From: Myxococcota bacterium
GTDB taxonomy: Bacteria; Myxococcota; XYA12-FULL-58-9; JALHOP01
Length of the DNA stretch: 64,000 nucleotides
Direction of reading: 5' to 3'
Assembly: GCA_041288095.1 (NCBI GenBank)
Contig: JBGGMJ010000105.1
Span: forward strand, 1 to 64,000
Below are positions 8,087-23,197 of this stretch, in pieces. The position numbers were made by a program, and so were the translations under genes. The notes under the pieces were generated by a model. That model saw only the letters and a list, made by a program, of their open reading frames with translations. It had not been told where the DNA came from and searched no databases. The first letter of the stretch is position 1. Each line of letters opens with the position of its first letter.

Positions 8087-11000
8087 ATGAGAAACGAAGG
8101 CGTCAATCTTTCCCGACTGCTCGTCGAAACCCAGCTCGAGCGCCAAGACGATTGGGAGACGCTGGCCCAGCGCAACATCGACCTGCAGCTGGCTCTCGAG
8201 GCCCAACGCCGCGCTGCCGCGCAAGCGCAGGCCGCCGCCGATGCTCAGGCGGCAAACGATGCTCAGCTCGAAGCCGCGCGTATCGCGGCAGCCGAGGCGG
8301 AGATTGTTCCCCAGGTCATGCTCCCCACCGACGATGAGGCGACCGACCAAGCCGTCTTGGTGTCGGGCACGACCGACGCCGTAACCGAGCCCGGGCCGTA
8401 TGCCCAGGAGCTCGAGACCCAGCTCGCCGGCCTGACGATCACCGAGGACCTCCAGGTGCCGGTCGACAACCTTCGCGCCGCGACCGCTGAAGCGGACGCA
8501 CTCATCGCCGAGGGCTATCACGAGCAGGGCACCGCGATGTACGCGGCGATTCAGTACGCGAGTGAGCCGATCGTCACGGCGCTGGTCGCGGCACAGGTCG
8601 CGCCCGTCACGGCGCAGGCCGCGCCCGCCTCGGCGCAGACCATTGAAAGCCAACCGGTCGCGCAAAAGGCCGCGCAGCAAACAGCGACGTCACCTCTCGA
8701 GCAAGCGCCCCTCGCGGCGCCGAACGACTACTTCACCGGCAGCTTCGATGCCCCCCCTCCGGGCGGCTGGTTCTGGGCTATCGGCGATGCCGGCCGCACC
8801 GGTCAGGATGGCGTCTATCAGTGGCTCTCCGAGGCCGTCACTGCACGCGCCCGGGCGAGCGAGCATGGCGCCTACCTGCTCGCGGGCAGCGATCAGGTGA
8901 CGAGCGTCGGCCAGCATCTCCGGGATGCCGCGGCCTATCCGGTCGGCTTCGAGTTCGAGGTCTACGGCGGCGAGGGCGAACACTACACCCAAACGCAAAC
9001 GCGCATGCTCTCGCGCGACGAGACCATCGCCGAGCTCCGCAATCGCGGAAACGACGACAGCGCCATCGCCACGTATCTCGGTGAGCACGAGCAGTACATG
9101 GTTCAAGCCAGCTACTTCTCGGGCGGCGAAGACGGCACCGTCGTGCCCGCGGTGTATGGGACGCGCGACGCGTACCTCAGCGCCATCGGCCTTCCGCTCG
9201 ACGTACCGATGGACCTGCAGATCGCGTTCAACTACTCGGGCGCGGGCAGCGGCGACGCATGGCTCGACGCCTCGCACGCGCGGATGAGCATGGCGGGGGG
9301 CGGTGTCGAGAGAGCTTACGTCGCCATCGTCGACGACAGGCTCGCCGCTGACTGGGCGCAAATCGGCGACATCGGCCCGATCAACGACGACGTCAACGAG
9401 ATGCTCGGCGATATCTACGGGCGCTACGGCGCGACGACGCCCGAGCAACAAGAGGCGGTTCGTAACGTTCTCTTCAAGTACGACGAACGCTTCGGCGTGC
9501 TCGCGAACCGCGAGTTCGTCGAGGCCGCGGTCGAGAAAAACAACGCGCGTCGCCAGGGCTTCTTCGAGGGCCCGGTTGGCCGCGCGATCCTCAGCGTCGC
9601 GGCGAGCTTCATCCCCGGCGTCGGACCCTACGTTTCGATGATGCTCAACGCCGGCTTCCAGCTGTCCGACGGCGCGTCATTCGGCCAAGTCATCGCCGGC
9701 GCCGCGGTGAGCTACTTCACCCAGCAGTACACCGCGGACTTCGGAAACTACGTCGCCGGGGCCTTCGGCGACAGCATCAGCCCGGCGGTCGCTGAGGTCA
9801 TCGCCGCCGGCGCCCGCAATCTCGGGAACACGGCGATCAACCAGCTCATGTCCGGCAACGGCCTCGATGGTGAGGGCCTACTGCTCGCGGCCGCGGCGGG
9901 TGGCTTCGGCAGCTTCATCACCAACTTCGTCGACGGATCCGACTTCGGTAAAGTGCTCGACGAACAGTTCGGTCGTGGTCGCGCCGGCGACATCATCGGA
10001 CGTTTGGGTGCTTCAGCGGTCGACGGCAAGCTCTCCGCCAGTGACTTCGTCGGTGCCTTCGCGGCCGGTCGCGCGGACCAGGTGACCACCGTCGAGGGCG
10101 CGGACGGCACGCACGTCTTCGTCAAGACCGATACCGGCATGATCACCCGCAACCCGGACGGCAGCATTACCCAGCTCGATGAGGGTGATGACGGCCAGGT
10201 CGTTGCCACCACCTATGACAGTGATGGCAATCGCATCGTTTCGGCGGACGCCTTCACCGGTGCGCTCGCGAATCCGGTATGGCGGACGGCGACGTTGAGT
10301 GATGCGCTGACTGACCAGCTCACCGGCGAGAGCTTGTTCACCGGGCTCGAGGACATCTTCGGCTTGGCGGCCGGCTCCGTGAGCTTCGACGGCTTCACCC
10401 CGGACTTCGACGGCACCTTGTCTCTGTTCGGCTCCGTGCTCGGCGGCGCCAGCCCCCTCGAGCTCGCCGCGCTCCAGGAGGGTGGCTACGGCCTCGACGC
10501 GACCATGACCTCGTTCGTGCCCGACGACGTCGCCGTCGATGCTCCGCCCCCGGATCTCACCTCTAAAACGTACACCAAGGATCAGAATGGTCTCGAGACT
10601 TGGCGCGATCCGGATACCGGCGCCATCATCAAACAGCGCGATGCCAATGGAGCGATGCTCGAGGTCGTCGGCGATCGGCGCGTCATCACCGATCCGCAAG
10701 GTAAGGTCGTCTCCGTGCAAGGCGGCACCCGAGGCGAGGCGCTTCGCCAAGCCCGCGACAGCGGCAGCGGCCTGGTCGAGTGGAACGGCAAGCTCTACAC
10801 CACGGTGACGGAGGAGGACCTCGTCCGCCAAAGCGGTCAGAGCGTCAAGGCGTTCCGTGAGTTCAAGGCGACCAAGGGAGGGACCTACGCGGACTTCCAA
10901 GCCGAGATCACCGCCAACAAGTGGGGCGTGTTGGCTCAGGGGGGCGTCGATACCAAGTACTGGCAGTCGCAAGGCTTCACGCCCGAGCTGGTAGCCGTCA

Positions 11001-12586
11001 CCTACGCCGTCAACGGTAACGACCATCGCCTGGCCACGATGAAGCCGAACGAAACCGTGGCCGTCGACAGTCTCGCGCTCAACATCGCCAACAACCTGGC
11101 AAACCTACCCGCGGGCTTCGGCGAGCTTTATCGAAGTGCCGTGAACGGCTTCACCGCCTTCGCCCAGAGCCAGGAGATCAACGGCCAGACCATGACCTTC
11201 ACTGAGCTCATGGGCGCGGGCGTGAACTACCTCTTGAACGCTGGACAGAGCGCCGCGAAGCGTCTGGTCGACAACACCGACAGCACCGGCGAGGCCGTGT
11301 TGGTCGCGGTCGGCGGCGGCTTTCAGGCCATCATCAATTCGTTCAAAGGCGGCGTCGAGGCGCTCGATAGCTTGGGCAAGCCTCTCACGCCACAGCAAGC
11401 CGCCGTGGAAACGCTCAAGTTGTTTGGCGGCATCGCGTCGGTGTTCGGAGTCACTGGGCTCGCGCGCGGCGCCGTCGCCGGCACGGCGGTGACGACCGAA
11501 GGCTTGAGCGCCGCGAGCAACGTCACGGTGCGGACGCTGGCCGACGCGGCCGGTCTGCTGCTGCCGGACAATCCTGGCTCCGTGGTGAAGCACATGGACT
11601 TCCTCAGCCCGGGCCCACAACCGACGGCGCTCGCCAACGTCGACGACGTCTCGGCGCGCATCGCCGCCGTCGACCTCGCCGTCGAGACCAAACATTTCTA
11701 CGACAGCTTCGACTCGGCGCGTGACATCGCCACCGTGCTCGTCGGCCCGTTGAGTGATTCCCTGGGGGTCGCGCGCGGCAGAGCCAGCGTTTACGACCTG
11801 GCACTGCGCGAGTCGCTGTTCGACTACCAAAACGTCGGTGGCACGGTGCCGAGGCTCAGCGATGGCACGTGGATCTTCCCCGTGGGCACGCGGCCAGACG
11901 GGCTCGAGTTCATCGGTTTCGATGCATTCGCGCCGAGCATCGTTCGTCACGAGGCGCAGCACGTGCTCGACTACGCCGCCGCGGCTCTCGACCCGGCGAG
12001 CCCGTATCTGCTGCGGATGGAGTGGCCGAATTCAGGAAGCTCGCTGTACAAGGGGTTCGCGTATACCGAGCTCAACGGATTCGGCATCACCGCCGAGGAG
12101 CTTTCGCGGTCGTACGTTTTCGCGATGGCCAACGGCGACGTCGCCGGCGCCGCCAACGCCTTGAAGGGTTATCAGTCCATCCTGGGCACCTATGACGGCC
12201 TGATGGGCCGCGTCGAAGAGGTGCTCGGCAACGCGGTGTCACAACCGTCGCGCTCGCTCATGGCGCAAACCATGACGGCGAGCCCCGCTGTCCCGAAGAA
12301 CTCTGGCTTCCAGGTCGTCGAGTTCCAGATCATCGGTCCCGAAGGCTTGCCGGTGAAGATGTCGGCGGAGGTCCAAGCAGGTCTGACGCCGGCGCAAATG
12401 AACGACGCGGTCACGGAGCAAATGATCTCGGGCCTGAATCAGCTCGATGCCTACGTCGACTTCCGCGCCGCGCGCGCGGCCGATCTCGCGGCGTTGAAGC
12501 AGCACTATCAGCAGCAAGTGGGGACGCCGAACACCGGCAACGGGGGTGGTAACACCGGCGGTCGCGGCGGCGGCCTCGACCCCTAG
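8087..12586 (+). CDS. Giant (1499 aa) hypothetical protein, polymorphic-toxin-like, with C-terminal HExxH metallopeptidase motif
   Basis: Long open frame with GAGG RBS. Ala/Gln-rich N-terminus, Gly/Ala hydrophobic helices, beta-repeat region, IVRHEAQHVLDY at about aa 1288. No classical signal peptide. Confidence 0.8.
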   Translation: MRNEGVNLSRLLVETQLERQDDWETLAQRNIDLQLALEAQRRAAAQAQAAADAQAANDAQLEAARIAAAEAEIVPQVMLPTDDEATDQAVLVSGTTDAVTEPGPYAQELETQLAGLTITEDLQVPVDNLRAATAEADALIAEGYHEQGTAMYAAIQYASEPIVTALVAAQVAPVTAQAAPASAQTIESQPVAQKAAQQTATSPLEQAPLAAPNDYFTGSFDAPPPGGWFWAIGDAGRTGQDGVYQWLSEAVTARARASEHGAYLLAGSDQVTSVGQHLRDAAAYPVGFEFEVYGGEGEHYTQTQTRMLSRDETIAELRNRGNDDSAIATYLGEHEQYMVQASYFSGGEDGTVVPAVYGTRDAYLSAIGLPLDVPMDLQIAFNYSGAGSGDAWLDASHARMSMAGGGVERAYVAIVDDRLAADWAQIGDIGPINDDVNEMLGDIYGRYGATTPEQQEAVRNVLFKYDERFGVLANREFVEAAVEKNNARRQGFFEGPVGRAILSVAASFIPGVGPYVSMMLNAGFQLSDGASFGQVIAGAAVSYFTQQYTADFGNYVAGAFGDSISPAVAEVIAAGARNLGNTAINQLMSGNGLDGEGLLLAAAAGGFGSFITNFVDGSDFGKVLDEQFGRGRAGDIIGRLGASAVDGKLSASDFVGAFAAGRADQVTTVEGADGTHVFVKTDTGMITRNPDGSITQLDEGDDGQVVATTYDSDGNRIVSADAFTGALANPVWRTATLSDALTDQLTGESLFTGLEDIFGLAAGSVSFDGFTPDFDGTLSLFGSVLGGASPLELAALQEGGYGLDATMTSFVPDDVAVDAPPPDLTSKTYTKDQNGLETWRDPDTGAIIKQRDANGAMLEVVGDRRVITDPQGKVVSVQGGTRGEALRQARDSGSGLVEWNGKLYTTVTEEDLVRQSGQSVKAFREFKATKGGTYADFQAEITANKWGVLAQGGVDTKYWQSQGFTPELVAVTYAVNGNDHRLATMKPNETVAVDSLALNIANNLANLPAGFGELYRSAVNGFTAFAQSQEINGQTMTFTELMGAGVNYLLNAGQSAAKRLVDNTDSTGEAVLVAVGGGFQAIINSFKGGVEALDSLGKPLTPQQAAVETLKLFGGIASVFGVTGLARGAVAGTAVTTEGLSAASNVTVRTLADAAGLLLPDNPGSVVKHMDFLSPGPQPTALANVDDVSARIAAVDLAVETKHFYDSFDSARDIATVLVGPLSDSLGVARGRASVYDLALRESLFDYQNVGGTVPRLSDGTWIFPVGTRPDGLEFIGFDAFAPSIVRHEAQHVLDYAAAALDPASPYLLRMEWPNSGSSLYKGFAYTELNGFGITAEELSRSYVFAMANGDVAGAANALKGYQSILGTYDGLMGRVEEVLGNAVSQPSRSLMAQTMTASPAVPKNSGFQVVEFQIIGPEGLPVKMSAEVQAGLTPAQMNDAVTEQMISGLNQLDAYVDFRAARAADLAALKQHYQQQVGTPNTGNGGGNTGGRGGGLDP

Positions 12587-12622
12587 GCGCTGGGGTGCGC
12601 CAAGGCGACTGCCGTGGAGGCG

Positions 12623-12648
12623 CAACCGCGACCGCGATTGCCCGATAA
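12623..12648 (+). promoter_or_regulatory. sigma28-like bipartite promoter CAAC-N15-CCGATAA
   Basis: GCGCAACCGCGACCGCGATTGCCCGATAA, followed by GAGGTG RBS and GTG 12677. The same motif recurs at three other intergenic sites. Confidence 0.6.
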
Positions 12649-12676
12649 AGGGTTCGATTCAGTCGAGGTGTTACGC

Positions 12677-13510
12677 GTGTCAATCGAAGTCTCGCAATTC
12701 AAGCTCGACCCCGCGGCCATCGTGCCGCCCGGAGAACCAGAAGCGCAGGCTCCTCGACCCTCGACCGCGCTCGCCCCGAGGCAAGAAACCGTGCCGGCGC
12801 TGCCCCCCTCGACGGTGCGCACCCTTCTCGTAGCCGATTACGCCTTGCCGGGCGCCGCAGGCTCGGCCTGGCTCCTGAGCCTCGGCCTCGCGTTCAGCCA
12901 GAGCGCTTCGTTGCCTCTTCTCGCGGCCCTGACCGCCGCCGGGATCGGCTCGGGGCTCGCCATCGCGCGTAGCCTCATCATGCAAAAAACAGCCGCGCCC
13001 GTGGCGACCGACCCAGCAATGGCGCAGACGCACTACAACTATGCGATCGACCTGGCCAACACGGCGAAGCTGCGCCTCGAGCATGCTTACAAGTACGTGT
13101 GTTTGTCGGACGCCGTGCCGGGCGACCAGGCCGAGCGCCTCTTGAAGGACCTCCCTCGCGGCCAGGAGTGGGGCATCCTCCGTGGTCCATTCGGAAACGC
13201 GCGCACCAACCCGGTGACGTTCCAGGCCGTCCTCAAGGAGATCGGCCTGCGTGAGTGGCGCCGCTACCGCTTCGTACCCTACGACGTCGAGCTCGTCATC
13301 GCCGGGCTCAAGAAGCTCGGGCCCGTCACTCCCGAGCAGCGACTGCGCATCCAGGCGAACGCCCTCGACATCATGAGCAAGTACCACAACCATCACGAGA
13401 CATCAGAAGCGCTGCAGGCTGATCTCGTCGCCGCGGTCCGCGAGCTCGCGCGCCGTGCACCAAGCGCGCCTCACCTGGGAGACTTGAAGCCGGTGCAAGC
13501 GAGCACGTAG
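12677..13510 (+). CDS. Hypothetical protein with Pro-rich N-terminus and a hydrophobic hairpin
   Basis: ORF 12614-13510; GTG 12677 has an RBS. Two hydrophobic segments, then a helical domain. Confidence 0.7.
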   Translation: MSIEVSQFKLDPAAIVPPGEPEAQAPRPSTALAPRQETVPALPPSTVRTLLVADYALPGAAGSAWLLSLGLAFSQSASLPLLAALTAAGIGSGLAIARSLIMQKTAAPVATDPAMAQTHYNYAIDLANTAKLRLEHAYKYVCLSDAVPGDQAERLLKDLPRGQEWGILRGPFGNARTNPVTFQAVLKEIGLREWRRYRFVPYDVELVIAGLKKLGPVTPEQRLRIQANALDIMSKYHNHHETSEALQADLVAAVRELARRAPSAPHLGDLKPVQAST

Positions 13511-13521
13511 GGTTGCGACGC

Positions 13522-14637
13522 ATGCCGCCGCCAATCATCTTTCTCGACCTACCGGCCGTGGCGCGCTGGCGCGATGCAAGTCACTTGGAGCTGCTCGACT
13601 TCGTGACGGGCACCCGGCTCGTCGCCGACGGCGAGGTTGCACACGATCTCTGGCACTGCTTCGAGCGCGGTGAACAGAGTGAGCGCGTGCGTGCCCTGAG
13701 CCTGGCTCAACCCTTGATCAGCGCCCTGCTCGCGGATCAGCGTCGCCAGGCCTGGAGCCCGCGCGCATCGCTCGAGCTTGGTGGCTTCGACACTCTGTTC
13801 ATCGAGCTAACCGGCCGCTGCAACGAGCGCTGCCTCCATTGTTATGCGGACTCGAGCCCCGAGGTGACCACCGCATTGGATCGCGCCACCTGCGAGACGC
13901 TCCTCGACGACGCCGTGAGCCTGAGATTCCGACGCGTCCAGCTCACCGGCGGTGACCCACTCTTGTGCTCGTTCTTGCCCGAGCTCGTCGATGCCGCGGA
14001 TCCGAGCCTTACCGTCGAGATCTACACCAATGGTCTCGCCTTGAAGGACGAGCTGCTCGCGAAGCTATCGCGCCGTCGTCCGGCGTTCGCGTTCTCGTTC
14101 TATTCGCACGATGCCGCGCACCATGACGCCATCACCCGCACCCCCGGGAGCCAAGCACGAACGCGGGCCGCGATCGCCCGTGCTCTCGCGGCCGGCCACG
14201 CGGTGAGGGTCTCGATCATCGTCATGCGTGAGAACGCAGACGACGTGGCCGCCACCATCGCCATGCTCGAGGCCATGGGAGTGACCGACGTCAGCGTCGC
14301 GGGCACACACGCGGCGGGGCGTGGTGACTACTGGGATGGGAAGGTCGAGCGAGCATCATCCGCCCACTTACCGCGCCCGCCCGACAACGATTCCGATCGC
14401 CCGCGAGGCAGGCTTTGCGTCACCGCCGCTGGAGAGGTAACGCCGTGTATCTTCAATCGCAAGGACGTCTTGGGCCGCGTCCCCGGAGCGCGGCTCGTCG
14501 ACATCGTCGCAGCACCCGACCTCGATGCCCTACCGACGCGAGACGACGTGATCATGCTCGACGCACTCAAGCGCTCGTTGCAATGCACTGAGTGCCAGGC
14601 CGCTGCCTTCATGCTGCGGATTGGGGGGAAGGGATGA
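13522..14637 (+). CDS. Radical SAM protein with degenerate SPASM/twitch domain (putative RiPP maturase)
   Basis: IELTGRCNERCLHC (CxxxCxxC), LTGGDPLL, IYTNG, HDAITR.PGS, GEVTPC, CTEC. Confidence 0.9.
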   Translation: MPPPIIFLDLPAVARWRDASHLELLDFVTGTRLVADGEVAHDLWHCFERGEQSERVRALSLAQPLISALLADQRRQAWSPRASLELGGFDTLFIELTGRCNERCLHCYADSSPEVTTALDRATCETLLDDAVSLRFRRVQLTGGDPLLCSFLPELVDAADPSLTVEIYTNGLALKDELLAKLSRRRPAFAFSFYSHDAAHHDAITRTPGSQARTRAAIARALAAGHAVRVSIIVMRENADDVAATIAMLEAMGVTDVSVAGTHAAGRGDYWDGKVERASSAHLPRPPDNDSDRPRGRLCVTAAGEVTPCIFNRKDVLGRVPGARLVDIVAAPDLDALPTRDDVIMLDALKRSLQCTECQAAAFMLRIGGKG

Positions 14638-14912
14638 CAGCCCGTGCGCCCCTACGACACGCCACGGTGACCGACCGGGAGCTGCCCGATGGCGAGCGGG
14701 TGTTGCTCACGCCCGATGGTAGTGGGGTGCTCGTGCTCAATCCGCTGGGGAGCGTGATCTGGACGCTCTGTGACGGCGCACACGACGTGGAAGGCATGGC
14801 ACGCATCATCGGTGAGCGTTTCCCCGAGGTCGCGCCCGAGCAAATTGCACGCGATGTGAACGCCGTCCTCAAGCAGCTCGCGGAGGCGAAGCTCCTCGAC
14901 GATGTCAGCTAG
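14634..14912 (+). CDS. PqqD-family RiPP recognition element (RRE)
   Basis: VLNPLGSVIWTLCDG...IARDVNAVLKQLAEAKLL. ATGA overlap with the radical SAM stop codon. Confidence 0.9.
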   Translation: MTARAPLRHATVTDRELPDGERVLLTPDGSGVLVLNPLGSVIWTLCDGAHDVEGMARIIGERFPEVAPEQIARDVNAVLKQLAEAKLLDDVS

Positions 14913-15714
14913 CTTTCGTCGGTGCTTTCGCGCGCTCGACCTGACGGTGAGCGTGGCCTCCGACGTCCCCACGGTCGCCGCAACCCTCGACATGCTCACG
15001 AGCTGTTACGAGCTCGTACCCCGCGCCGAGGACTACGCTTACACGATCGACCAGGCCTCGTCGTACACGGCGCGTGTAAACGACGTGGTGCTCTACGAGA
15101 GCGCAAGCGAGCACGAAGTCGTGAGCGCCATCGAGCTGGATATCTATGACAGGGTGATGCGCGCGGCGCAGGGACGCTGGCTCGTGCACGCCGCCACTTT
15201 GGCGCACGACGACCGTGGGCTCGTGCTCGTCGGCGCGTCGGGCGCGGGCAAGAGCACGATGGCGCTGGCGCTCGTCGCGAAAGGGGCGAGCTATGTCACC
15301 GATGAGATGACCCTCATCGACGAACGTGGGGTCTGCCGCGGCCTTGGGCGCCCACTCACATTGGAGAGCCGCCCCGATGCGATGTTCACGCAAGGCATGC
15401 GGGTAGCGGTGGCGGGCTCGGGAGCTGCTCAGAGCGTTTGGGTCGCGCCGCCCCCCGAGCGACGCAGCGTGACGGCATTGGAACGCCACACTTGGGTGCA
15501 CCTCAGTCAAGGCCCCGGCGAGCTGCGTCGTCTCACCAGCGGCGAGGCGTTGGTGGCGTTCTGGGGACAGAGCCTCACCACGGATGCACGAGCGCTCGCG
15601 ATAGCGACCGACGTCGTGAGCGGCATGCCTGCCTACGCGGTGCGCGGTCAGTCGATCGCCGAGAGCGCCGAGCTCCTGGAGAGCCTGCTCGCAGGCCCGG
15701 GCGGCTCGAATTGA
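14902..15714 (+). CDS. HPr-kinase-related P-loop kinase
   Basis: LVHAA, Walker A GASGAGKST and YVTDE. Overlaps the PqqD stop. Confidence 0.85.
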   Translation: MSASFRRCFRALDLTVSVASDVPTVAATLDMLTSCYELVPRAEDYAYTIDQASSYTARVNDVVLYESASEHEVVSAIELDIYDRVMRAAQGRWLVHAATLAHDDRGLVLVGASGAGKSTMALALVAKGASYVTDEMTLIDERGVCRGLGRPLTLESRPDAMFTQGMRVAVAGSGAAQSVWVAPPPERRSVTALERHTWVHLSQGPGELRRLTSGEALVAFWGQSLTTDARALAIATDVVSGMPAYAVRGQSIAESAELLESLLAGPGGSN

Positions 15715-15757: not shown

Positions 15758-15976
15758 ATGGCGAAAGACCTCGAGGACAGCCAGAGCGAGTCCGAGCTGC
15801 TAGCGCGACGGGCCCTCCTCAAGCTGGGTGTCTATGTTGCGCCAGCGATCGTCGGCACCTTGATGCTGAGCAGCAAGCCCGTGGCGGCACAGGCGTCGTG
15901 TGGTCCCCAAGCGTGCAAGCCCGCCGCCAGCTGCGGTCCGACGGACGGCACCCCCTGCGCGCCGAATCGTCGCTAA
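15758..15976 (+). CDS. Putative RiPP precursor peptide (72 aa)
   Basis: Acidic N-terminus, RRALLK, YVAPAI, hydrophobic stretch, VAAQA, then Cys-rich core SCGPQACKPAASCGPTDGTPCAPNRR. Lies directly after the maturase genes. Confidence 0.8.
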   Translation: MAKDLEDSQSESELLARRALLKLGVYVAPAIVGTLMLSSKPVAAQASCGPQACKPAASCGPTDGTPCAPNRR

Positions 15977-16857
15977 AGCACCGCGTCGACGCTGGTCGAT
16001 GAGGTCTTTCGCAGTCGGGCCGCGACCGCCGAAGCCAAGAAGCGCGGCAGGGCCGACGTGCGCGTCGACAGCAGAGGCAACAATGCGAGCAGCTCGACGC
16101 GGATGTTGGCCACGTGCCCCGTGGTCCAGACGCGGCGCTCGCCACCGAGATTGAAGAGGCGGCGCAGGAGGTCGACACGCAGACGCTCCGCCGTCGCAAG
16201 TGGAATCTCGGGCACCTTGCCGCCGCGGCGCCGCAACATGTCAGCGAGCACGTGGAGGGCAATCGTAAGGTGTGCGTCGGCGCAGGTGCGGATCACCGCT
16301 TGCCAGTCGACTGCTTGCCGCGCGAGCAGACGAAAGACGTCGCCCAGATGGCGATCGTCGAGCGTGAAGCGAGCGCCGGCATAGTGGACGACGGCGTGGA
16401 CCACTTGGTCTTCGGCGCATAGCCCCATGATCGGTCCGTCGACGCTGTCCCAGGCGTGTGCCCGCTCGAGGAGACGCTCGTCGTCCAGCGGAAACCACGG
16501 GCGCGGACCAAGCGCGCGATGCAGGTCGACGTCGATGAGGTCCGCGGGAGCGCGGAACGGCAGGCCGCGCAGCGCATGATGGGCGAGCAGGCGGTCACCA
16601 CGAAAGCCGTGGGCGCGCAGCTCAGCGGCGAAGGCGTCGAATGCCCGAGGCTCGACGAGCACGTCGATATCGACCCCCCAGCGCTCGCCCAGTCCGCTAT
16701 AGAGTACAGGGTCGGCCCACGCGGCCTTCAGATAGACGACCTTGGTGCCGACACGCGCACCGATGGCATCGAGGATGCCGCGCTGTCGCTTCACCATGAG
16801 GCTGCGGCCGAGACCCGCGGTGGCGCGCAAGCCTGCGTCCATGGGTCTTTTGTACAC
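15973..16857 (-). CDS. Uncharacterised nucleotidyltransferase (NTP_transf_5-like)
   Basis: VVYLKAAW...LY...ER..VDIDVLV, VDLH, HAVVH, VDW. Start GTG 16857 overlaps the upstream stop (TAGTG); ATG 16842 is an alternative. Confidence 0.85.
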   Translation of the reverse strand: MYKRPMDAGLRATAGLGRSLMVKRQRGILDAIGARVGTKVVYLKAAWADPVLYSGLGERWGVDIDVLVEPRAFDAFAAELRAHGFRGDRLLAHHALRGLPFRAPADLIDVDLHRALGPRPWFPLDDERLLERAHAWDSVDGPIMGLCAEDQVVHAVVHYAGARFTLDDRHLGDVFRLLARQAVDWQAVIRTCADAHLTIALHVLADMLRRRGGKVPEIPLATAERLRVDLLRRLFNLGGERRVWTTGHVANIRVELLALLPLLSTRTSALPRFLASAVAARLRKTSSTSVDAVL

Positions 16858-18431
16858 TAGTCCTTGCGCGTCGTCTTCGGACGGCTGGCCTCGCCGACGC
16901 GCCGGAGGCGATCAGCGAAGGCTTGGCGCAGCTCGGGTTGGAATCGCGGGTCGGCGATCGCGATCAGCGCTTCGGCGCGCTCCAGGGTGGACTTGCCCTC
17001 GAGCTTGGCGACGCCGTGCTCGGTGACGACGTACTGAAGGTCGTGCATCGAGGTCGTGACCACGTCATCGGTGCCAAGGTACGGGACGATGGACGAGATC
17101 ACCTGGGGTTGACCATCGGCGCCCTTGATGGTGCGCGTCGAGGCGAGGGCGAGGATCGCGGCGCCTCCGGGAGAGCGCGAGGCTCCACGCATGAAGTCGA
17201 CTTGGCCGCCGACGCCGCTGTACCAGCTGCCGTTGATCATTTGGGCGTTGACCTGGCCGTTCAGATCGACACGCAGCGCCGTGTTGATGGCAATGAGCTT
17301 GTCGATCTTACCGAGCGCGACCGGGTCGTTGCATGCGTCGATGGGCAGGGCGACGAGCTGCGGGTTGCCGTCCATCCACTGCAGCAGCTCCGCCGAGCCG
17401 CCGGCGAAGCTGAACTCGATGGGACCCGCGACCGCGCCCGCTTTAGCGAGCAACATGACGCCGTCGGCGATCATCTCCGAGTGAATGTGAAACCCCTTGC
17501 GGCCTTGCTCCGCGAGCCGCGCGGCAACCGCGTTGGGTAACCCCCCGATGCCAAACTGCAGGGTCGCGCCGTCGGGCACCAAGCCGACGATGTTCGACGC
17601 GATGGCGACTTCTTCGGCGCTCGCCGGCGGCGCCGGCACGGTGATGACCGGCGCTTCCGAGCGCACGATATGATCGAGCTCACTGACATGGACGCGGCAC
17701 GCGCCACCGACCCGAGGCACGCTCGGGCTCATCTCGGCGATGACCGTTTTAGCGTGCTCGATGGCCACCGGCTCGAGGACCGCGCTGGTGCCGATGCTGA
17801 CATAACCTTCGGCGTCGGGGGGGCTGACGCGCAGGAGGACCTTGTCGATCGGGAGCTCGCCGCCGCGAATCAATCCGGGCAGTCGGTGGAAGAAGCTGGG
17901 GATGAACGAGCCGCGCCCGGTGGCGATGGCGGCACGCGAGCTGTTGTCGACGAAGATGGCCTCGGGGACGATCTTGCCCTCGCCTTCGTAGAGCTTGGGA
18001 TCGACCAAGACGGCCGTCCCGAAGAGCTTCAATGGTCGCTTGGCGTCGAGCTCGCCCGGCAGTCGCGCCCTCGCCGCCAGCGCCCCGAGGATGGTCAGAG
18101 GCGCCATGTGACCAACCGGCACGAGGACCCGCTCGCCAGGCTGTAACAGCGCCGCGGCTTGCTCGGCGGTGATCGTTCGTTCCGCAAGCACACGCTCGGC
18201 GCTCGGCAGAGGCGCCGCGTTGGCCAGCGCGTCGATCTTGCCACGCAGCGCCGTGACTTCCTTGGGATCGGTGAGCGCCCGCGCGTCGGCGCTCTTCGCG
18301 AGAAAGGCGTCGACTTCGGCGACGCTCGTCAGTCGGTCAGGACTCCCGGTCGCTTCGTCCGCGCGCGCGAGCAGCCGCTCATCGGAGGTGTTGGCTCGAG
18401 CGACTCGGGTGATGGCGACGGACTTGTTCAC
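16857..18431 (-). CDS. Acetyl-CoA hydrolase / 4-hydroxybutyrate CoA-transferase family, with N-terminal extension
   Basis: VSPPDAEGYVSIG, DGATLQFGIGGLP, HSEM, SGVGGQVDFMRGA, VVTEHGVAKL. GTG 18431 has a GGAGG RBS (ORF track start is 18452). Confidence 0.92.
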   Translation of the reverse strand: MNKSVAITRVARANTSDERLLARADEATGSPDRLTSVAEVDAFLAKSADARALTDPKEVTALRGKIDALANAAPLPSAERVLAERTITAEQAAALLQPGERVLVPVGHMAPLTILGALAARARLPGELDAKRPLKLFGTAVLVDPKLYEGEGKIVPEAIFVDNSSRAAIATGRGSFIPSFFHRLPGLIRGGELPIDKVLLRVSPPDAEGYVSIGTSAVLEPVAIEHAKTVIAEMSPSVPRVGGACRVHVSELDHIVRSEAPVITVPAPPASAEEVAIASNIVGLVPDGATLQFGIGGLPNAVAARLAEQGRKGFHIHSEMIADGVMLLAKAGAVAGPIEFSFAGGSAELLQWMDGNPQLVALPIDACNDPVALGKIDKLIAINTALRVDLNGQVNAQMINGSWYSGVGGQVDFMRGASRSPGGAAILALASTRTIKGADGQPQVISSIVPYLGTDDVVTTSMHDLQYVVTEHGVAKLEGKSTLERAEALIAIADPRFQPELRQAFADRLRRVGEASRPKTTRKD

Positions 18432-18467
18432 GAGGCTTGGCCCTCCGGGCACGGTGATAGCCGGAGG

Positions 18468-21094: not shown

Positions 21095-23197
21095 ATGAAG
21101 AAGACAACGTCGAGCTTGTCCTGGGTATTGCTCGCATCGCTATCCGTCGCCTGCGCCGGCGAGCGCACCGAAGGTGAAACCGTCGCCGCCGCGCCGGAAG
21201 CCTCGGAAGTTTCGAGCAACGCGGCGCAAGCACCCGCAACCACGAGCGTCTCGCTCATTAGCCGCGAAGTCTTGTTCGGCAACCCAGAGCGCACGGCTCC
21301 GCAGCTGTCGCCGGACGGTAAGCGCATCGCGTTCCTGGCTCCAGTCAACAACGTCCTCAACGTTTGGGTCGGTCCCGCGGACGACTTCGCGCAAGCCAAG
21401 CCCGTGACGAGCGACACGAAGCGCGGCATCCGCGACTACTTCTGGACGTACACGAACAATCACATCGTCTATCTCCAGGACAAGGATGGTGACGAGAACT
21501 GGCGCGCCTATGCCATCGACCTCGTCAAAGGCGGCCAGCGTGATCTGACGCCGTTCGACGGGGTGCGCGCCCAGATCGCCCACGTCACGCACAAGAAGCC
21601 GAAGGAGATCTTGATCGGTCTCAACAAGCGCGACCCCAAGGCGCACGACCTTTATCGCGTCGACATCACCACCGGCACCATGAAGCTCGTCGCCGAGAAC
21701 AAGGACAACCTCGCCGACTACATCGCCGACGACGACCTCAACGTTCGCATCGCCAGCAAGATCAATGACGACGGGTCGAGCGAGATCCTCGAGCCCGACG
21801 CCAAGAAGCGCGGCACCTGGAAGAGCCTGCTGCACGTGCCCTTCGACGACACCATGGGCACTTCGCCGGTCGACTTCACCAAAGACGGCAAGGCCATGTA
21901 CCTGCTCGACAGCCGCGACCGCGACACCGCCGCGCTCTACACCTACGACTTCAAGACCAAGGAAAAGAAGCTCGTCGCCGAGAGCAGCGCGGCCGACGTC
22001 GGCGGCATCATGATGCATCCCACCGAGCACACGGTGCAGGCCGTGACGTTCGACCCGGGTCGCATCACCTGGAAGATCCTCGATCCGAAGATCGAAGCCG
22101 ACTTCGCCTCGTGGAAGACCACCGACGACGGCGACCTCGTGAGCGCGCGCTCGTCGCTCGACCAGTCGAAGTGGCTGCTCACGTTCGTGCACGATCAAGG
22201 ACCGACCAAGTACTACGCGTACGATCGCGCCACGAAAAACGCGAAGCTCCTGTTCGTGAACCAACCGAAGCTCGAGGGCGCGCCGCTCTCGGCGATGCAA
22301 GCGGTGACCATCCGCTCGCGCGACAACCTCGATCTGCCGAGCTACCTGACGCTACCCATGGACGCGGTCGCGTTGCAGGCCACCAAGCCGGCGAAGCCTT
22401 TGCCGATGGTGCTCTTGGTGCACGGTGGTCCGTGGGCGCGCGACACCTGGGGCTTCAACCGCTCGCACCAGTGGCTCGCCAATCGCGGCTACGCGGTGCT
22501 CAGCGTCAACTACCGCGGCTCGACCGGTTTCGGAAAAGCCTTCGTCAACGCCAGCAAGATGCAGTGGGCCGGCACCATGCACGATGATCTCCTCGACGCG
22601 GTGGACTGGGCGGTCAAGGAAGGCATCGCCGACCCCAAACGCGTCGCCATCATGGGCGGCAGCTACGGCGGCTACGCGACCCTCGTGGGTCTCACCTTCA
22701 CGCCGGACGTCTTCGCATGCGGCGTCGACATCGTCGGGCCCTCGAACCTCGCGACCTTGCTGGCGACGATCCCCCCGTACTGGGCGCCCGCTAAAGCGTT
22801 GTTCACCAGCCGCGTCGGCGACATTTCGACCGAAGAGGGCAAGGCGAAGCTCGCCGAGCGCTCGCCGCTGACCAAGGCGGACAAGATCGTGAAGCCCCTA
22901 CTCATCGGTCAGGGCGCCAACGACCCGCGCGTCAAGCAAGCGGAGTCGGACCAGATCGTGACGGCGATGAACGCCAAGAACATCCCGGTGACCTATGTGG
23001 TGTTCGGCGACGAGGGCCACGGCTTCAAGCGGCCGGAGAACAGCATGGCGTTCAACGCGGTCGCCGAGGCGTTCCTCGCCAAGCACCTGGGAGGGCGGTT
23101 CGAGCCGGTCGGTGACGACTTCAGCGGCTCGTCCATCGACATCAAGAACGGCGCCGAGCTCATCCCGGGCCTGCCGAAACCGGTGGCCGCCCGATGA
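21095..23197 (+). CDS. S9 family dipeptidyl/acylaminoacyl peptidase, lipoprotein
   Basis: VHGGPW, NYRGSTGFG, nucleophile GGSYGG, GANDPRV, DEGHGF. Confidence 0.95.
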   Translation: MKKTTSSLSWVLLASLSVACAGERTEGETVAAAPEASEVSSNAAQAPATTSVSLISREVLFGNPERTAPQLSPDGKRIAFLAPVNNVLNVWVGPADDFAQAKPVTSDTKRGIRDYFWTYTNNHIVYLQDKDGDENWRAYAIDLVKGGQRDLTPFDGVRAQIAHVTHKKPKEILIGLNKRDPKAHDLYRVDITTGTMKLVAENKDNLADYIADDDLNVRIASKINDDGSSEILEPDAKKRGTWKSLLHVPFDDTMGTSPVDFTKDGKAMYLLDSRDRDTAALYTYDFKTKEKKLVAESSAADVGGIMMHPTEHTVQAVTFDPGRITWKILDPKIEADFASWKTTDDGDLVSARSSLDQSKWLLTFVHDQGPTKYYAYDRATKNAKLLFVNQPKLEGAPLSAMQAVTIRSRDNLDLPSYLTLPMDAVALQATKPAKPLPMVLLVHGGPWARDTWGFNRSHQWLANRGYAVLSVNYRGSTGFGKAFVNASKMQWAGTMHDDLLDAVDWAVKEGIADPKRVAIMGGSYGGYATLVGLTFTPDVFACGVDIVGPSNLATLLATIPPYWAPAKALFTSRVGDISTEEGKAKLAERSPLTKADKIVKPLLIGQGANDPRVKQAESDQIVTAMNAKNIPVTYVVFGDEGHGFKRPENSMAFNAVAEAFLAKHLGGRFEPVGDDFSGSSIDIKNGAELIPGLPKPVAAR

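Follow-up and report, generated by a model that had tools for sequence, protein, structure and literature searches.

The window analysed here is a 64,000-nucleotide stretch of a Myxococcota bacterium genome (contig JBGGMJ010000105.1, positions 1 to 64,000). Its forward strand carries genes for a radical-SAM peptide maturase (13513..14637, 374 aa; Pfam Radical_SAM 2.9e-15), a discrete RRE of the PqqD family (14634..14912, 92 aa from a probable ATG at 14634), an HPr-kinase-like P-loop protein that is a probable precursor-peptide Ser/Thr kinase (14902..15714, 270 aa), and a precursor peptide (15758..15976, 72 aa plus stop, translation MAKDLEDSQSESELLARRALLKLGVYVAPAIVGTLMLSSKPVAAQASCGPQACKPAASCGPTDGTPCAPNRR). 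A PF14907 nucleotidyltransferase gene on the reverse strand (15973..16857, 294 aa; NTP_transf_5 1.5e-19) is convergent with the precursor gene. The longest ORF of the PqqD protein starts at GTG 14592; the ATG at 14634, where ATGA overlaps the radical-SAM stop codon, was picked from sequence and alignment. The Pfam PqqD model (PF05402) matches this protein at 3.7e-16, over its cut-off.

The precursor opens with an acidic N-terminal extension of the leader, read from the sequence (15758..15805, residues 1-16, MAKDLEDSQSESELLA), followed by a twin-arginine motif, RRALLK (15806..15823, residues 17-22), and an uncharged h-region of 17 residues (15824..15874, L23-S39). Within the h-region lies a lasso-type motif, Y26-x-x-P29-x-I31-x-G33 (YVAPAIVG, nt 15833-15856). 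The c-region, KPVAAQA (15875..15895), has a predicted signal-peptidase I site, A44-Q45-A46 / S47, and leads into the core peptide (15896..15973, residues 47-72), in which S47 is followed by C-x-P units at C48, C53, C59, and C67. All of these parts are on the forward strand. The elements listed in the earlier note were each located in the ORF translation of 15758-15976: ARRALLK at residues 16-22, LGVYVAPAIVGTLML at 23-37, PVAAQA at 41-46, and the core from S47. Its description of the core is also borne out, since each of the four Cys (4/4; 48, 53, 59, and 67) belongs to a C-x-P unit and there are two copies of ASCGP, at 46-50 and 57-61.

A search profile was made from this ORF and its two first homologues. 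Among 1.84 billion representatives, it matched 177 clusters, defined at 50% identity, at E ≤ 1e-3, of which 23 also pass E ≤ 1e-10; longer or fused precursor forms were not seen at E ≤ 1e-3, which is weak evidence. The precursor is present in 64 of 80 fetched loci with a homologous radical-SAM gene. These loci gave 69 precursor hits, 61 of them immediately upstream and in the same orientation. The family loci belong to Myxococcota, Zetaproteobacteria, Planctomycetota, and Acidobacteriota. The cassette that recurs in them consists of the radical-SAM enzyme, the PqqD protein, and the HPr-kinase-like kinase, often with the PF14907 nucleotidyltransferase; counted over 81 loci, that is, the 80 fetched loci and the window, the kinase is found in 67, PqqD in 65, and the PF14907 gene cluster in 27. 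Because the profile finds 177 clusters and the relatives adjoin the same cassette, the ORF at 15758-15976 is, judged from sequence, a genuine precursor of a family conserved at the protein level and not a chance ORF. The earlier note had named a peptide that is not translated as a way for its proposal to fail, and a protein-level family genetically tied to the enzymes speaks against that.

In an atlas look-up, the clusters nearest to the precursor were hypothetical proteins without names (0.93-0.94), and the named ones were below 0.9 and serve as leads at most. A kinase search of 40 related genomes gave matches at the P-loop level only (best 5.5e-8, 27% identity). Three genomes of the same genus had kinase matches with E from 2e-4 to 1e-3, and with the kinase query the cassette was not found in any of the genomes searched. 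In a further search, a kinase profile matched in 53 of 201 genomes of a single phylum; among 20 short and 10 longer loci from these, four (L098, L100, L101, and L122) had ordinary precursors of the family, and a long Tat protein with YxxP was not seen. No paper on the cassette or on a RiPP with a Tat signal was found in the literature searched, which did not include subscription journals or bioRxiv supplements. The best explanation is that this is a new, undescribed, and widespread RiPP-like precursor family of exported, putatively enzyme-modified peptides with Cys-x-Pro repeats. It thus flags a sizeable natural-product family, spread over at least four phyla that include the iron-oxidising Zetaproteobacteria.

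Family counts were made on 152 members with an anchor regex that required RR, which all 152 satisfied. The C-x-P arrangement expected from the earlier note is conserved among these homologues, with 688 of 764 Cys in C-x-P, and the commonest Cys-Cys spacing is 5 (294 of the spacings counted). The residue preceding the first Cys is Ser in 114/152 members and Thr in 15/152, while Ser precedes later Cys in 72/612 cases. The CAPNR near the end of the window's core resembles the CxPxR motif of anaerobic sulfatase-maturase (anSME) substrates. We rejected this reading, since CAPNR is not conserved in the two first homologues and anSME came only about 30th in the fold search with the radical-SAM enzyme.

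The radical-SAM enzyme has a SPASM match of 0.0074, below the cut-off, and no NCBIfam model matched it over cut-off. Its CxxxCxxC motif (C103, C107, and C110) is invariant in 26 homologues, and C312, C358, and C361, in a C-terminal Twitch/SPASM-like auxiliary-cluster region, are conserved. The AF2 model (pLDDT 87.2) shows strands and then three helices at residues 8-73. From this predicted fold only, the N-terminus (residues ~8-73) is called a putative fused RRE-like domain; a profile-profile comparison of this domain with the PqqD protein gave no relation (probability 0.6). As a second candidate reader of the leader, the domain was counted against the dual-use reading of the leader set out below. 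In Foldseek, the model is closest to SkfB (6efn, 2.3e-15), then SuiB (about 2e-11) and CteB (1e-10), at 12-20% identity. The architecture of a thioether maturase, with CxxxCxxC, auxiliary-cluster Cys, and a predicted RRE-like N-domain, is present.

The kinase matches TIGR04352 HprK_rel_A at 9.9e-14, with 51.1 bits against a cut-off of 200, and Hpr_kinase_C at 3.6e-6, also below its cut-off. Eight of its residues recur in 57-67 of 67 homologues, namely H96, G111, G114, G116, K117, S118, D134, and E135, and their spacing is the same as that of H148-G163-G166-G168-K169-S170-D186-D187 in BsfK, as given in the available text of PMC10368454. By these residues, the protein carries the motif of the lasso-precursor kinases.

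What is the function of the YxxP motif in the leader? According to PMC10368454, lasso leaders have a YxxPxL motif that is read by B1 chaperones. In the window, Y26-V-A-P29-A-I31 matches this spacing with Ile at the Leu position, where the family has Ile or Val. Counted from the first Arg of RR as position 0 in 152 members, Y is found at +9 in 138, P at +12 in 142, I or V at +14 in 143, and G at +16 in 95, so the conservation of YxxP that the earlier note had asked for is there. With a PqqD profile of 27 homologues, the best PDB chains are the lasso B1 proteins TbiB1 (1e-10) and TfuB1 (3.4e-7). A complex prediction for PqqD and leader residues 1-47 scored 0.53, compared with 0.02 for the best control. 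The runs agree in at least 93% of contacts and the partner pLDDT is at least 63; interface contacts were not returned. Of 157 solved complexes, 116 reach the mark used, as do 2 of 215 mismatched pairs. A passing score of 0.60 or less, the weak-support band in which this one falls, was however given by just 18 of the 157 solved complexes and by both of the mismatched pairs that passed. The score could also reflect memory of solved B1-leader complexes. The claim that PqqD reads the leader has thus gained a conserved motif and a PqqD protein closest to B1, and the predicted binding itself stays in the weak band. We suggest that PqqD may bind the leader as a strand at YxxP.

By analogy, PqqD may chiefly serve the kinase, as BsfB1 does BsfK, for the discrete RRE BsfB1 accelerates that kinase in the Bradymonas lasso system (PMC10368454, available text). 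This possibility, the RRE-like domain fused to the maturase, and the lasso-type kinase and nucleotidyltransferase of the cluster are points that the earlier note had not raised. Alternatively, the leader could be a true export signal whose YxxP is no RRE site and has its use in the translocase, in membrane insertion, or directly with the kinase; PqqD would bind elsewhere, for example at the acidic N-region, or only partner the kinase. The weak band of the complex score, with its unreported interface, would fit this, as would the BsfA peptides with single and double substitutions in YxxPxL that are still processed, as described in the accessible part of PMC10368454. Against it are the spacing of Y, P, and [ILV], identical to that of the lasso motif, and the closeness of PqqD to lasso B1 proteins. 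Furthermore, a loose screen of the window's genome for Tat-like N-termini gave 32 candidates, and Y+9/P+12 occurs in this ORF alone and is missing from the other 31. We consider a role of YxxP outside RRE binding improbable.

The textbook Tat consensus is S/T-R-R-x-F-L-K. The window's A-R-R-A-L-L-K follows it, with departures at -1 (Ala) and +3 (Leu, not Phe), and is succeeded by the 17 uncharged residues and by KPVAAQA with its AxA. Among the 152 members, R0R1 is found in 152, R or K at +2 in 120, L at +3 in 132 (F in 11, hence L or F in 143/152), L at +4 in 144, and K or R at +5 in 130; the residue at -1 is Ala in 123/152. Among 69 locus-derived precursors anchored on Y..P, and not on RR, 67 have RR exactly 9 residues upstream. 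Of the other two, one (L042) has RR by eye and one (L017) is without it. The conservation of RR among homologues, on which the earlier proposal depended, is therefore found in 152/152 members and in 68/69 when anchored on Y..P. The segment preceding RR is net negative in 129/152 members. An uncharged run of at least 13 residues is present in 127/152 (median 16), and the h-region is moderately hydrophobic, with a mean Kyte-Doolittle value of 1.74 over +6 to +20.

Curated models gave low scores for the leader. Neither Pfam nor NCBIfam has a model that matches the window precursor or its two first homologues at E ≤ 10, and none of 67 members reached the cut-off of the curated Tat-signal models (TIGR01409 and PF10518). 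TIGR01409 matched 1 of the 67 (E 0.28, 11.6 bits against a cut-off of 16.7) and PF10518 none; profile positions 1-41 of TIGR02811, its Tat part, matched 15, MoCo_extend_TAT 1, and UCR_Fe-S_N 2, all below threshold. Overall, the Tat-model scores of the family are 12-16 bits against cut-offs of 16.7-48. Note that the HMMER filters discard many short weak matches, which bears on these counts. The only curated models to which the leader region of these members has any match are nevertheless Tat-signal models. TatC is present in the genome, with 199.1 bits, over its cut-off. Of the putative Tat export proposed earlier, the conserved RR, the AxA site, and TatC are thus present, and the thresholds of the curated Tat models are not reached.

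Because these models stay below threshold, a Sec route is possible. The pathway and the RRE-binding leader would then be the same, but the signal would be of the Sec type, with RR and LLK kept for recognition by the enzyme or the RRE and not for TatBC. The Ala at -1 and the Leu that replaces Phe at +3 would suit such a signal, and the c-region charge is mixed, with basic residues, a Sec-avoidance feature, in 84/152 members and acidic residues in 54/152. Two arginines are, on the other hand, not needed in a Sec n-region, and here RR is invariant in a full RR-x-[LF]-L-[KR] pattern; the acidic N-region is unusual for Sec signals, and the only HMMs with any likeness to the leader are those of Tat signals. 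Signal-peptide RiPPs that use Sec do exist, and since the modified Cys peptides of the bufferins can take that route (PMC12452194, in the part available), Tat is not required by the logic of the pathway. We favor Tat over Sec as the export route and regard a Sec-type signal as unlikely.

The distribution of A.A in the family indicates where the leader would be cleaved. A.A between +19 and the first Cys is found in 116/152 members, compared with 50.5 ± 5.0 (maximum 69) in 500 shuffles. Its last Ala is at +24 to +29, and the first Cys follows 1-5 residues later in most members. In the window, cleavage is predicted after AQA46. Of the 36/152 members without A.A, 13 end in [QE][GA]C, and these could be cleaved differently. 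It is also conceivable that the leader is never cleaved and is a membrane anchor, so that the product is a small membrane protein displaying a Cys-Pro tail on the periplasmic face and is not released. The 17-residue uncharged stretch has the length to span or nearly span a membrane, but it includes Pro and Gly, its hydrophobicity is no more than moderate, and the conserved small-x-small site directly precedes the core. An uncleaved anchor is, in our judgment, highly improbable.

A RiPP pathway usually depends on a leader protease and an exporter of its own. The earlier note had remarked on the lack of both in the cluster, and this extends to the family: across the 81 loci, the cassette is not accompanied by a conserved protease or transporter. 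Among protease and transporter gene clusters present in at least 10 of the 81 loci, there is one MFS gene, in 11 loci, and no other. The two S9 peptidases in the window were considered as the missing protease and rejected because they have no homologue in the 80 loci. A dual-purpose leader may explain why neither a dedicated protease nor an exporter is needed. Alternatively, the leader might be an ordinary cytoplasmic RiPP leader, recognised by the RREs, the kinase, and the radical-SAM enzyme, that only mimics a signal peptide, with unlinked housekeeping proteases and transporters removing it and exporting the product. Both Y..P..[IV].G and ARRxLLK are conserved far beyond what export by itself needs, and the cassette has two RRE-type domains. 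Moreover, the precursor of locus L017 keeps YTPPAVVG, together with the radical-SAM enzyme and PqqD, and is without RR and AxA. This single locus (n = 1, uninformative) is without the kinase or a transporter, and its neighbors are unrelated (bestrophin, ADH, and LysR). A cytoplasmic leader does not account for an AxA at a fixed distance directly preceding the first Cys, or for the uncharged run, of median length 16, after the RR motif. Given these two features, and since the 81 loci share no protease or exporter, a cleaved signal peptide fits better than coincidence, and we find the cytoplasmic leader quite unlikely.

We infer the following order of steps. Residues 1-46 would do two jobs, as a Tat-type signal peptide, made up of RRxLLK, an uncharged h-region of roughly 17 residues, and an AxA signal-peptidase I site, and as a docking strand for an RRE. 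In the cytoplasm, the discrete PqqD protein, which is B1-like, would read the Y-x-x-P-x-[I/V]-x-G of the h-region, and the RRE-like domain of the radical-SAM enzyme may read it too. With the leader so bound, the kinase would phosphorylate the core, the conserved Ser next to the first Cys being the likeliest site. The radical-SAM enzyme, which is SkfB-like, would work on the Cys-x-Pro pentads, where thioethers are the likeliest outcome, and the PF14907 nucleotidyltransferase may add a further modification. Once released, the modified peptide would be led by the same leader to the cell's general export system, with Tat favored over Sec, and cleavage by signal peptidase I after AQA46 would free, outside the cytoplasm, a product some 26 residues long. 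The product would contain the C-x-P pentads and, probably, phospho-Ser. This dual-use leader on a modified Cys-x-Pro peptide, with export favoring Tat, is our best reading; it is unproven, and we hold it to be somewhat more probable than its alternatives together. None of the computational checks that the earlier note had named as able to refute its idea did so. The proposal that one leader recruits the RRE and then directs export has thus kept its conserved elements and its linkage to the enzymes, while the Tat route and PqqD-YxxP binding are the inferred parts. A motif of the form RRxLLK...YxxPxIxG...AxA would make enzyme recruitment and export separable by point mutation.

A more specific form of the dual-use reading is that PqqD is itself a Tat proofreading chaperone, which would bind YxxPx[I/V] in the h-region, hand the core to the kinase and the radical-SAM enzyme, and hide the signal from TatBC for as long as modification is incomplete. 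We offer this tentatively, as possible but rather less probable than not. If it is true, the leader, the export address, and the cleavage site are one element, and a separate protease and transporter are unneeded.

Several known systems share parts of this arrangement. The CefA family ('Cys-every-fifth', NF038108) has the same Cys periodicity of 5, and TIGR04117 describes a target peptide of a radical-SAM enzyme with Cys-Xaa-Xaa-Xaa repeats. Weak matches to CefA were found in 2 of 67 members (best E 0.058) and to TIGR04117 in 1 of 67 (0.016), far below cut-off. CefA membership was rejected, the window precursor having no hit, and the maturase models of CefA and TIGR04117 were not among the 25 best families listed for the radical-SAM enzyme. 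The thioether-forming RiPP maturases with N-terminal RRE domains, SkfB and CteB and also SuiB, are like the present enzyme, as modeled, in having an RRE-like N-domain, a radical-SAM core, and a C-terminal auxiliary-cluster domain, and in a Cys-rich substrate. C-x-P pentads and genes for PqqD, a kinase, and a nucleotidyltransferase are, by contrast, not among the features of those systems.

Phosphorylated lasso peptides, such as paeninodin and pseudomycoidin, offer a second comparison. Their clusters, of which the Bradymonas bsf cluster is one (PMC10368454, accessible part), share with this cassette a discrete B1/PqqD protein, an HPr-kinase-like K, and a nucleotidyltransferase N. Common to both are also the leader Y-x-x-P-x-[L/I/V] and the kinase H...G..G.GKS...(16)...D[D/E]. 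Here, however, a radical-SAM enzyme takes the place of the lasso machinery and there is no ABC exporter gene. Neither a lasso cyclase nor a B2 protease had a family match among the 8 neighboring ORFs scanned, and both are absent from the gene clusters common to at least 10 of the 81 loci. The core is a C-x-P repeat and not a ring-forming sequence, and the leader is signal-peptide-like, with RRxLLK, an h-region, and AxA.

The closest precedent for a secretion signal that acts as a RiPP leader is found in the MNIO systems, as described in the available parts of PMC12452194 and PMC13056109. There, bufferins and oxazolins use Sec and signal peptidase I, and DybA-type precursors are lipidated and cut by signal peptidase II. 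The likeness includes a Cys-rich precursor, modification in the cytoplasm, general secretion, and no dedicated protease. Within the accessible text of PMC12452194, the authors call such a leader a rare feature and suggest, as speculation, that the signal peptide stays covered by a partner protein while modification is under way. Within the literature searched, MNIO-modified peptides, with Sec or lipoprotein signals, were the only cases of a secretion signal serving as RiPP leader. The enzymes differ, with an MNIO/DUF692 protein and a DUF2063-type partner in those systems and a radical-SAM enzyme, a PqqD RRE, and a kinase here. No match to MNIO (DUF692) or to a DUF2063-type partner was found among the window ORFs scanned, and the relation is one of analogy. 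Likewise, the MNIO signals are of the Sec or lipoprotein type, while the present one is twin-arginine-like and contains a defined RRE motif; the available text of PMC12452194 has 'Tat' and 'twin' 0 times, and that of PMC13056109 has 'Tat' and 'radical SAM' 0 times. If the dual-use reading is true, the signal-as-leader logic extends to radical-SAM/RRE chemistry, probably by the Tat pathway.

This bears on how cells stop precursors with a signal peptide from leaving before they are modified. Proofreading chaperones of the TorD, DmsD, and NapD type bind Tat signal peptides and delay export until the cargo is matured. The likeness to them, a cytoplasmic protein that holds a twin-arginine signal, is by analogy only. 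If the proofreading reading of PqqD is true, Tat routing would be new among RiPP families, and a TorD/DmsD-like role new among RREs. The chaperones of the TorD, DmsD, and NapD type have other folds and serve redox proteins that contain cofactors, whereas here a PqqD/RRE protein would serve a small modified peptide.

The precursor ORF runs from an ATG to a TAA (15758–15976, +, 72 codons), and its translation is MAKDLEDSQSESELLARRALLKLGVYVAPAIVGTLMLSSKPVAAQASCGPQACKPAASCGPTDGTPCAPNRR. All of the sequence elements listed in the earlier note can be read from this translation, and that observation is confirmed: ARRALLK at residues 16–22, an uncharged stretch of 17 residues (L23–S39) with YVAP inside it, PVAAQA at residues 41–46, and a core in which all four Cys are within C-x-P and ASCGP is present twice. 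A word-indexed search with the precursor gave no more than two homologues, one 56% and the other 45% identical. The three aligned sequences share ARRALLK, YVAPAIVGTL, and all C and P residues of the CxP units without variation. The three-sequence profile, run against 1.84 billion cluster representatives, matched 177 clusters at E ≤ 1e-3, of which 23 also passed E ≤ 1e-10. These are small proteins, 51–151 residues among the 150 clusters listed. For the radical-SAM neighbour, homologues at E ≤ 1e-10 number at least 420. Its relatives were confirmed in 205 stretches by scanning one genome per species for a pattern, and 80 loci were kept, mostly from Myxococcota MAGs (Polyangiaceae, Kofleriaceae, Sandaracinaceae), the remainder including Zetaproteobacteria/Mariprofundaceae, Planctomycetota, and one Thermoanaerobaculia MAG. 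With an HMM of 67 family members, the precursor was detected in 64 of these loci (69 matches, with two copies in three loci and three in one), and 61 of the 69 matches are followed immediately by the radical-SAM gene in the same orientation. Among the 16 loci with no match to this HMM, L013, L025, and L077 are on contigs that begin at the radical-SAM gene, and L083, L084, L086, L088, L089, L090, and L092 carry the most distant radical-SAM relatives and are also without the kinase. The precursor gene is real and conserved, and very probably it encodes the substrate peptide of a modified-peptide family. Two or three precursor genes in tandem, with cores that differ, were seen at L024:9026–9600, L041:4548–5000, and L067:4834–5620.

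The gene order in the window, radical-SAM, PqqD, kinase, precursor, is unlike that of most loci. Upstream of the precursor, on the same strand, are the radical-SAM gene (13513–14637, +; Pfam Radical_SAM, 2.9e-15), the PqqD-family gene (14592/14634–14912, +; PF05402, 3.7e-16), and the gene for the HPr-kinase-like P-loop protein (14902–15714, +; HprK_rel_A, 9.9e-14, below cut-off). The nucleotidyltransferase gene (15973–16857; PF14907, 1.5e-19) is convergent with the precursor. For the radical-SAM protein, the SPASM match (0.0074) is below the model cut-off and no NCBIfam maturase model was above cut-off. When the ORFs of the 80 loci and the window were clustered, the radical-SAM gene was present in all 81, the kinase in 67, PqqD in 65, and the PF14907 gene in 27. 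The claim that the cluster has no dedicated protease or transporter agrees with this comparison, where no protease or ABC transporter cluster occurs in 10 or more of the 81 loci. Among the other clusters of that size, those whose representatives were scanned matched enoyl-CoA hydratase, ammonium transporter, MFS (11 loci), and TetR in Pfam, together with weak matches for a methyltransferase-like gene (20 loci), SGL, and ATP-grasp; two of the scanned clusters had no Pfam match.

Two tandem S9 prolyl-oligopeptidase-family genes (21095–23197 and 23194–25239, both +; Peptidase_S9, 2.1e-43 and 1.9e-45), with hydrophobic, Cys-containing N-termini, are located 5 kb from this cassette for a Pro-rich peptide. 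We rejected them as part of the system, and they are probably unrelated to it, since none of the 80 related loci holds a homologue. The cassette is immediately preceded, on its own strand, by ORFs of 1499 residues (8087–12586, +) and 298 residues (12614–13510, +), the latter with a hydrophobic central stretch; Pfam and NCBIfam gave no match for either, nor did tblastn against the 80 loci. The nucleotidyltransferase gene is abutted by a gene of the acetyl-CoA hydrolase/transferase family (16857–18452, −; AcetylCoA_hyd_C, 5.3e-52), which tblastn did not find near the cassette in the 80 loci. In L047 (2868–3764, +) and 19 other loci, from the Polyangiales clade whose leaders have RRHFLK and whose cores have CMP/CNP, an ORF of 299 residues is directly 3′ of the kinase gene. 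It matches Methyltransf_11 weakly (8e-4, below cut-off) and may be an extra tailoring enzyme.

Conservation of RR, YxxP, and CxP had been set as a check on the homologues, and all three are conserved when 152 family members are aligned on the RR pair. This anchor itself required RR (0, +1; 152/152), so a second anchor, on Y..P, was applied to 69 locus-derived peptides; RR is exactly nine residues upstream in 67 of them, and also in L042 by eye, with none in L017. Around the pair are A at −1 (123/152), R/K at +2 (120/152), L (132/152) or F (11/152) at +3, L at +4 (144/152), and K/R at +5 (130/152), followed by Y at +9 (138/152), P at +12 (142/152), A at +13 (110/152), I/V at +14 (143/152), and G at +16 (95/152). 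The uncharged run beyond +5 has a median of 16 residues and is at least 13 in 127/152. In 116/152 members, an A.A motif is present after +19 and ahead of the first Cys; 500 composition-preserving shuffles gave 50.5 ± 5.0 (maximum 69). The motif ends with an Ala at +24 to +29, with the first Cys 1–5 residues later in most members, and most of the 36 members without A.A have V/S/F-x-A or similar. The leader is probably a cleaved signal peptide. An uncleaved membrane anchor would share the hydrophobic stretch, and given the enrichment of A.A we consider it highly improbable.

Other features agree less well with the signal-peptide reading. Ahead of RR, the net charge is negative in 129/152 members, and the c-region has a basic residue in 84/152 and an acidic residue in 54/152. 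The precursor and two family members (P0001–P0003) had no match to curated Pfam/NCBIfam models at E ≤ 10, and none of these, nor any of the 67 members, scored above the cut-off of a curated Tat model. TIGR02811 was matched by 15 of the 67 (best E 0.0047, 12–16 bits versus a cut-off of 48), with its first 41 positions, which we take to be the Tat-signal part of the model, aligned to the leader region. The other Tat-type matches were TIGR01409 (one member, E 0.28), MoCo_extend_TAT (one), and UCR_Fe-S_N (two). The sole profile resemblance of the leader is thus a weak one, to Tat signals. That the leader stays entirely in the cytoplasm and only resembles a signal is quite unlikely beside the A.A motif. 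The genome of the window encodes TatC, and together with the RR pair this inclines us towards export by Tat rather than Sec; the Sec route, with which the sub-threshold Tat matches would agree, is unlikely.

What is the function of the YxxP motif? The spacing of Y, P, and I/V is that of the lasso leader motif YxxPxL, given for positions −17 to −12 in PMC10368454. When the genome of the window was loosely screened for an RR motif within 40 residues of a start codon, an uncharged run of at least 13, and A.A, 32 N-termini were found, with Y+9/P+12 in the precursor ORF alone. The motif is specific among the Tat-like N-termini of this genome. Folding the PqqD alignment together with leader residues 1–47 (67-row alignment) gave a score of 0.53, versus 0.02 for the best control, with runs agreeing in at least 93% of contacts and a partner pLDDT of at least 63; the output listed no individual contacts. 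This was graded weak support: the pass mark is met by 116/157 solved complexes and 2/215 mismatched pairs, and scores ≤0.60 include only 18/157 solved complexes but both mismatches that passed. Furthermore, the pass may reflect likeness, because B1–leader complexes are already solved. The prediction is compatible with binding, short of demonstration. We think it fairly likely that YxxP is read by an RRE; a true signal whose YxxP is not an RRE site would accommodate the modest score, and is very unlikely in view of the motif's specificity.

The cassette enzymes point to a lasso accessory module and a SkfB-like maturase. The best matches of a 27-homologue PqqD profile were the lasso B1 proteins TbiB1 (5v1u/5v1v, 1e-10) and TfuB1 (3.4e-7), and also PqqD itself. 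In the kinase family, H96, G111, G114, G116, K117, S118, D134, and E135 are kept in 57–67 of 67 sequences, with spacing identical to the motif H148-G163-G166-G168-K169-S170-D186-D187 of BsfK and other lasso precursor kinases (PMC10368454). BsfK, from the Bradymonas lasso system, phosphorylates a core Ser of its precursor and requires the leader, and the discrete RRE BsfB1 strongly speeds up the lasso kinase (PMC10368454). In our family, the first Cys is preceded by Ser in 114/152 and by Thr in 15/152, and Ser precedes only 72/612 later Cys. Therefore, there is a conserved hydroxyl residue at the core start (Ser-47 in the window), which we infer to be the kinase target. As modelled by AF2 (pLDDT 87.2), the radical-SAM protein has strands at 8–10, 15–21, 24–29, and 35–39 and helices at 40–52, 57–65, and 67–73 before the barrel, a predicted RRE-like topology. 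We call this fused domain RRE-like by predicted fold alone, because profile–profile comparison of PqqD and the radical-SAM protein found no relation. The system therefore has two candidate leader readers, the discrete PqqD and this domain. Foldseek ranked SkfB first (2.3e-15), then BlsE, SuiB, CteB, and EpeE.

Across the 152 members, C-x-P holds 688/764 Cys, and successive Cys are spaced by 5 in 294 cases, by 6 in 128, and by 7 in 68. The usual number of Cys is 4–6, and 63/152 peptides stop four residues past the last one. Pro makes up 20% of the core, Cys 16%, Gly 11%, and Asn 8.5%, and hydrophobic residues are nearly absent. Since the enzyme is SkfB-like and has one auxiliary-cluster region, the core may carry Cys-to-carbon thioethers. 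Zetaproteobacterial members (L066, L067, L070–L072, L076, L080, L085, L091; P0190, P0208, P0224, P0235, P0253, P0267) have fewer CxP units, with only two or three Cys (SC-x-PSAC-x-PC), and then long Lys-, His-, or Asp-rich tails of up to about 80 residues, some with His runs or NSNA/GNQGQ repeats. This layout is very unlike the compact myxobacterial cores and points to another role, perhaps in binding metals or minerals. A subgroup of 13/152, mostly with YVPP for YVAP, has no AxA and a c-region ending in [QE][GA]C, such as SLTQGC or LQQAGC (P0127, P0139, P0150, P0159, P0161, P0162, P0169, P0175, P0202, P0244, P0249, P0263, P0268; loci L015, L016, L019, L021). This ending could be a non-canonical lipobox, giving a lipidated product, or a small-x-small site; lipidated RiPPs made via signal peptidase II were recently described in MNIO systems (PMC13056109). 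In L017 (107–364, +), YTPPAVVG is kept, and RR, AxA, and the kinase are all missing, with the radical-SAM enzyme and PqqD present. This single case, whose unrelated neighbours (bestrophin, ADH, LysR) are uninformative, hints that the docking and export parts of the leader are separable.

We suggest that the leader is a twin-arginine-type signal peptide with the docking strand for the B1-like PqqD inside its h-region. PqqD binding in the cytoplasm would make the core available to the modifying enzymes (kinase, nucleotidyltransferase, and radical-SAM enzyme); after release, the same leader would direct export, and signal peptidase I would cut after AQA46. Such a leader would explain why AxA keeps a fixed distance and RR is invariant, why Y..P..[IV].G is conserved in addition, and why no protease or exporter is conserved with the cassette. 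The dual-use leader of the earlier note stands as the best available reading, overturned by none of its named computational refuters, with binding and the Tat route as its inferred parts; we favour the statement as a whole by a little.

Signal peptides as RiPP leaders have precedents in MNIO systems. PMC12452194 and PMC13056109 describe Sec signals in bufferins and oxazolins and lipoprotein signals in DybA-type peptides, regard the signal-peptide leader as rare, and speculate that the signal is hidden by a partner for as long as modification is unfinished. The words "Tat" and "twin" occur 0 times in PMC12452194, as do "Tat" and "radical SAM" in PMC13056109. A search of open-access papers found nothing on the cassette or on a RiPP with a Tat signal, and an earlier description elsewhere is possible. 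In the literature searchable here, the combination is undescribed: the system unites a signal-peptide-led RiPP, a lasso-type B1/K/N module, and an SkfB-like maturase.
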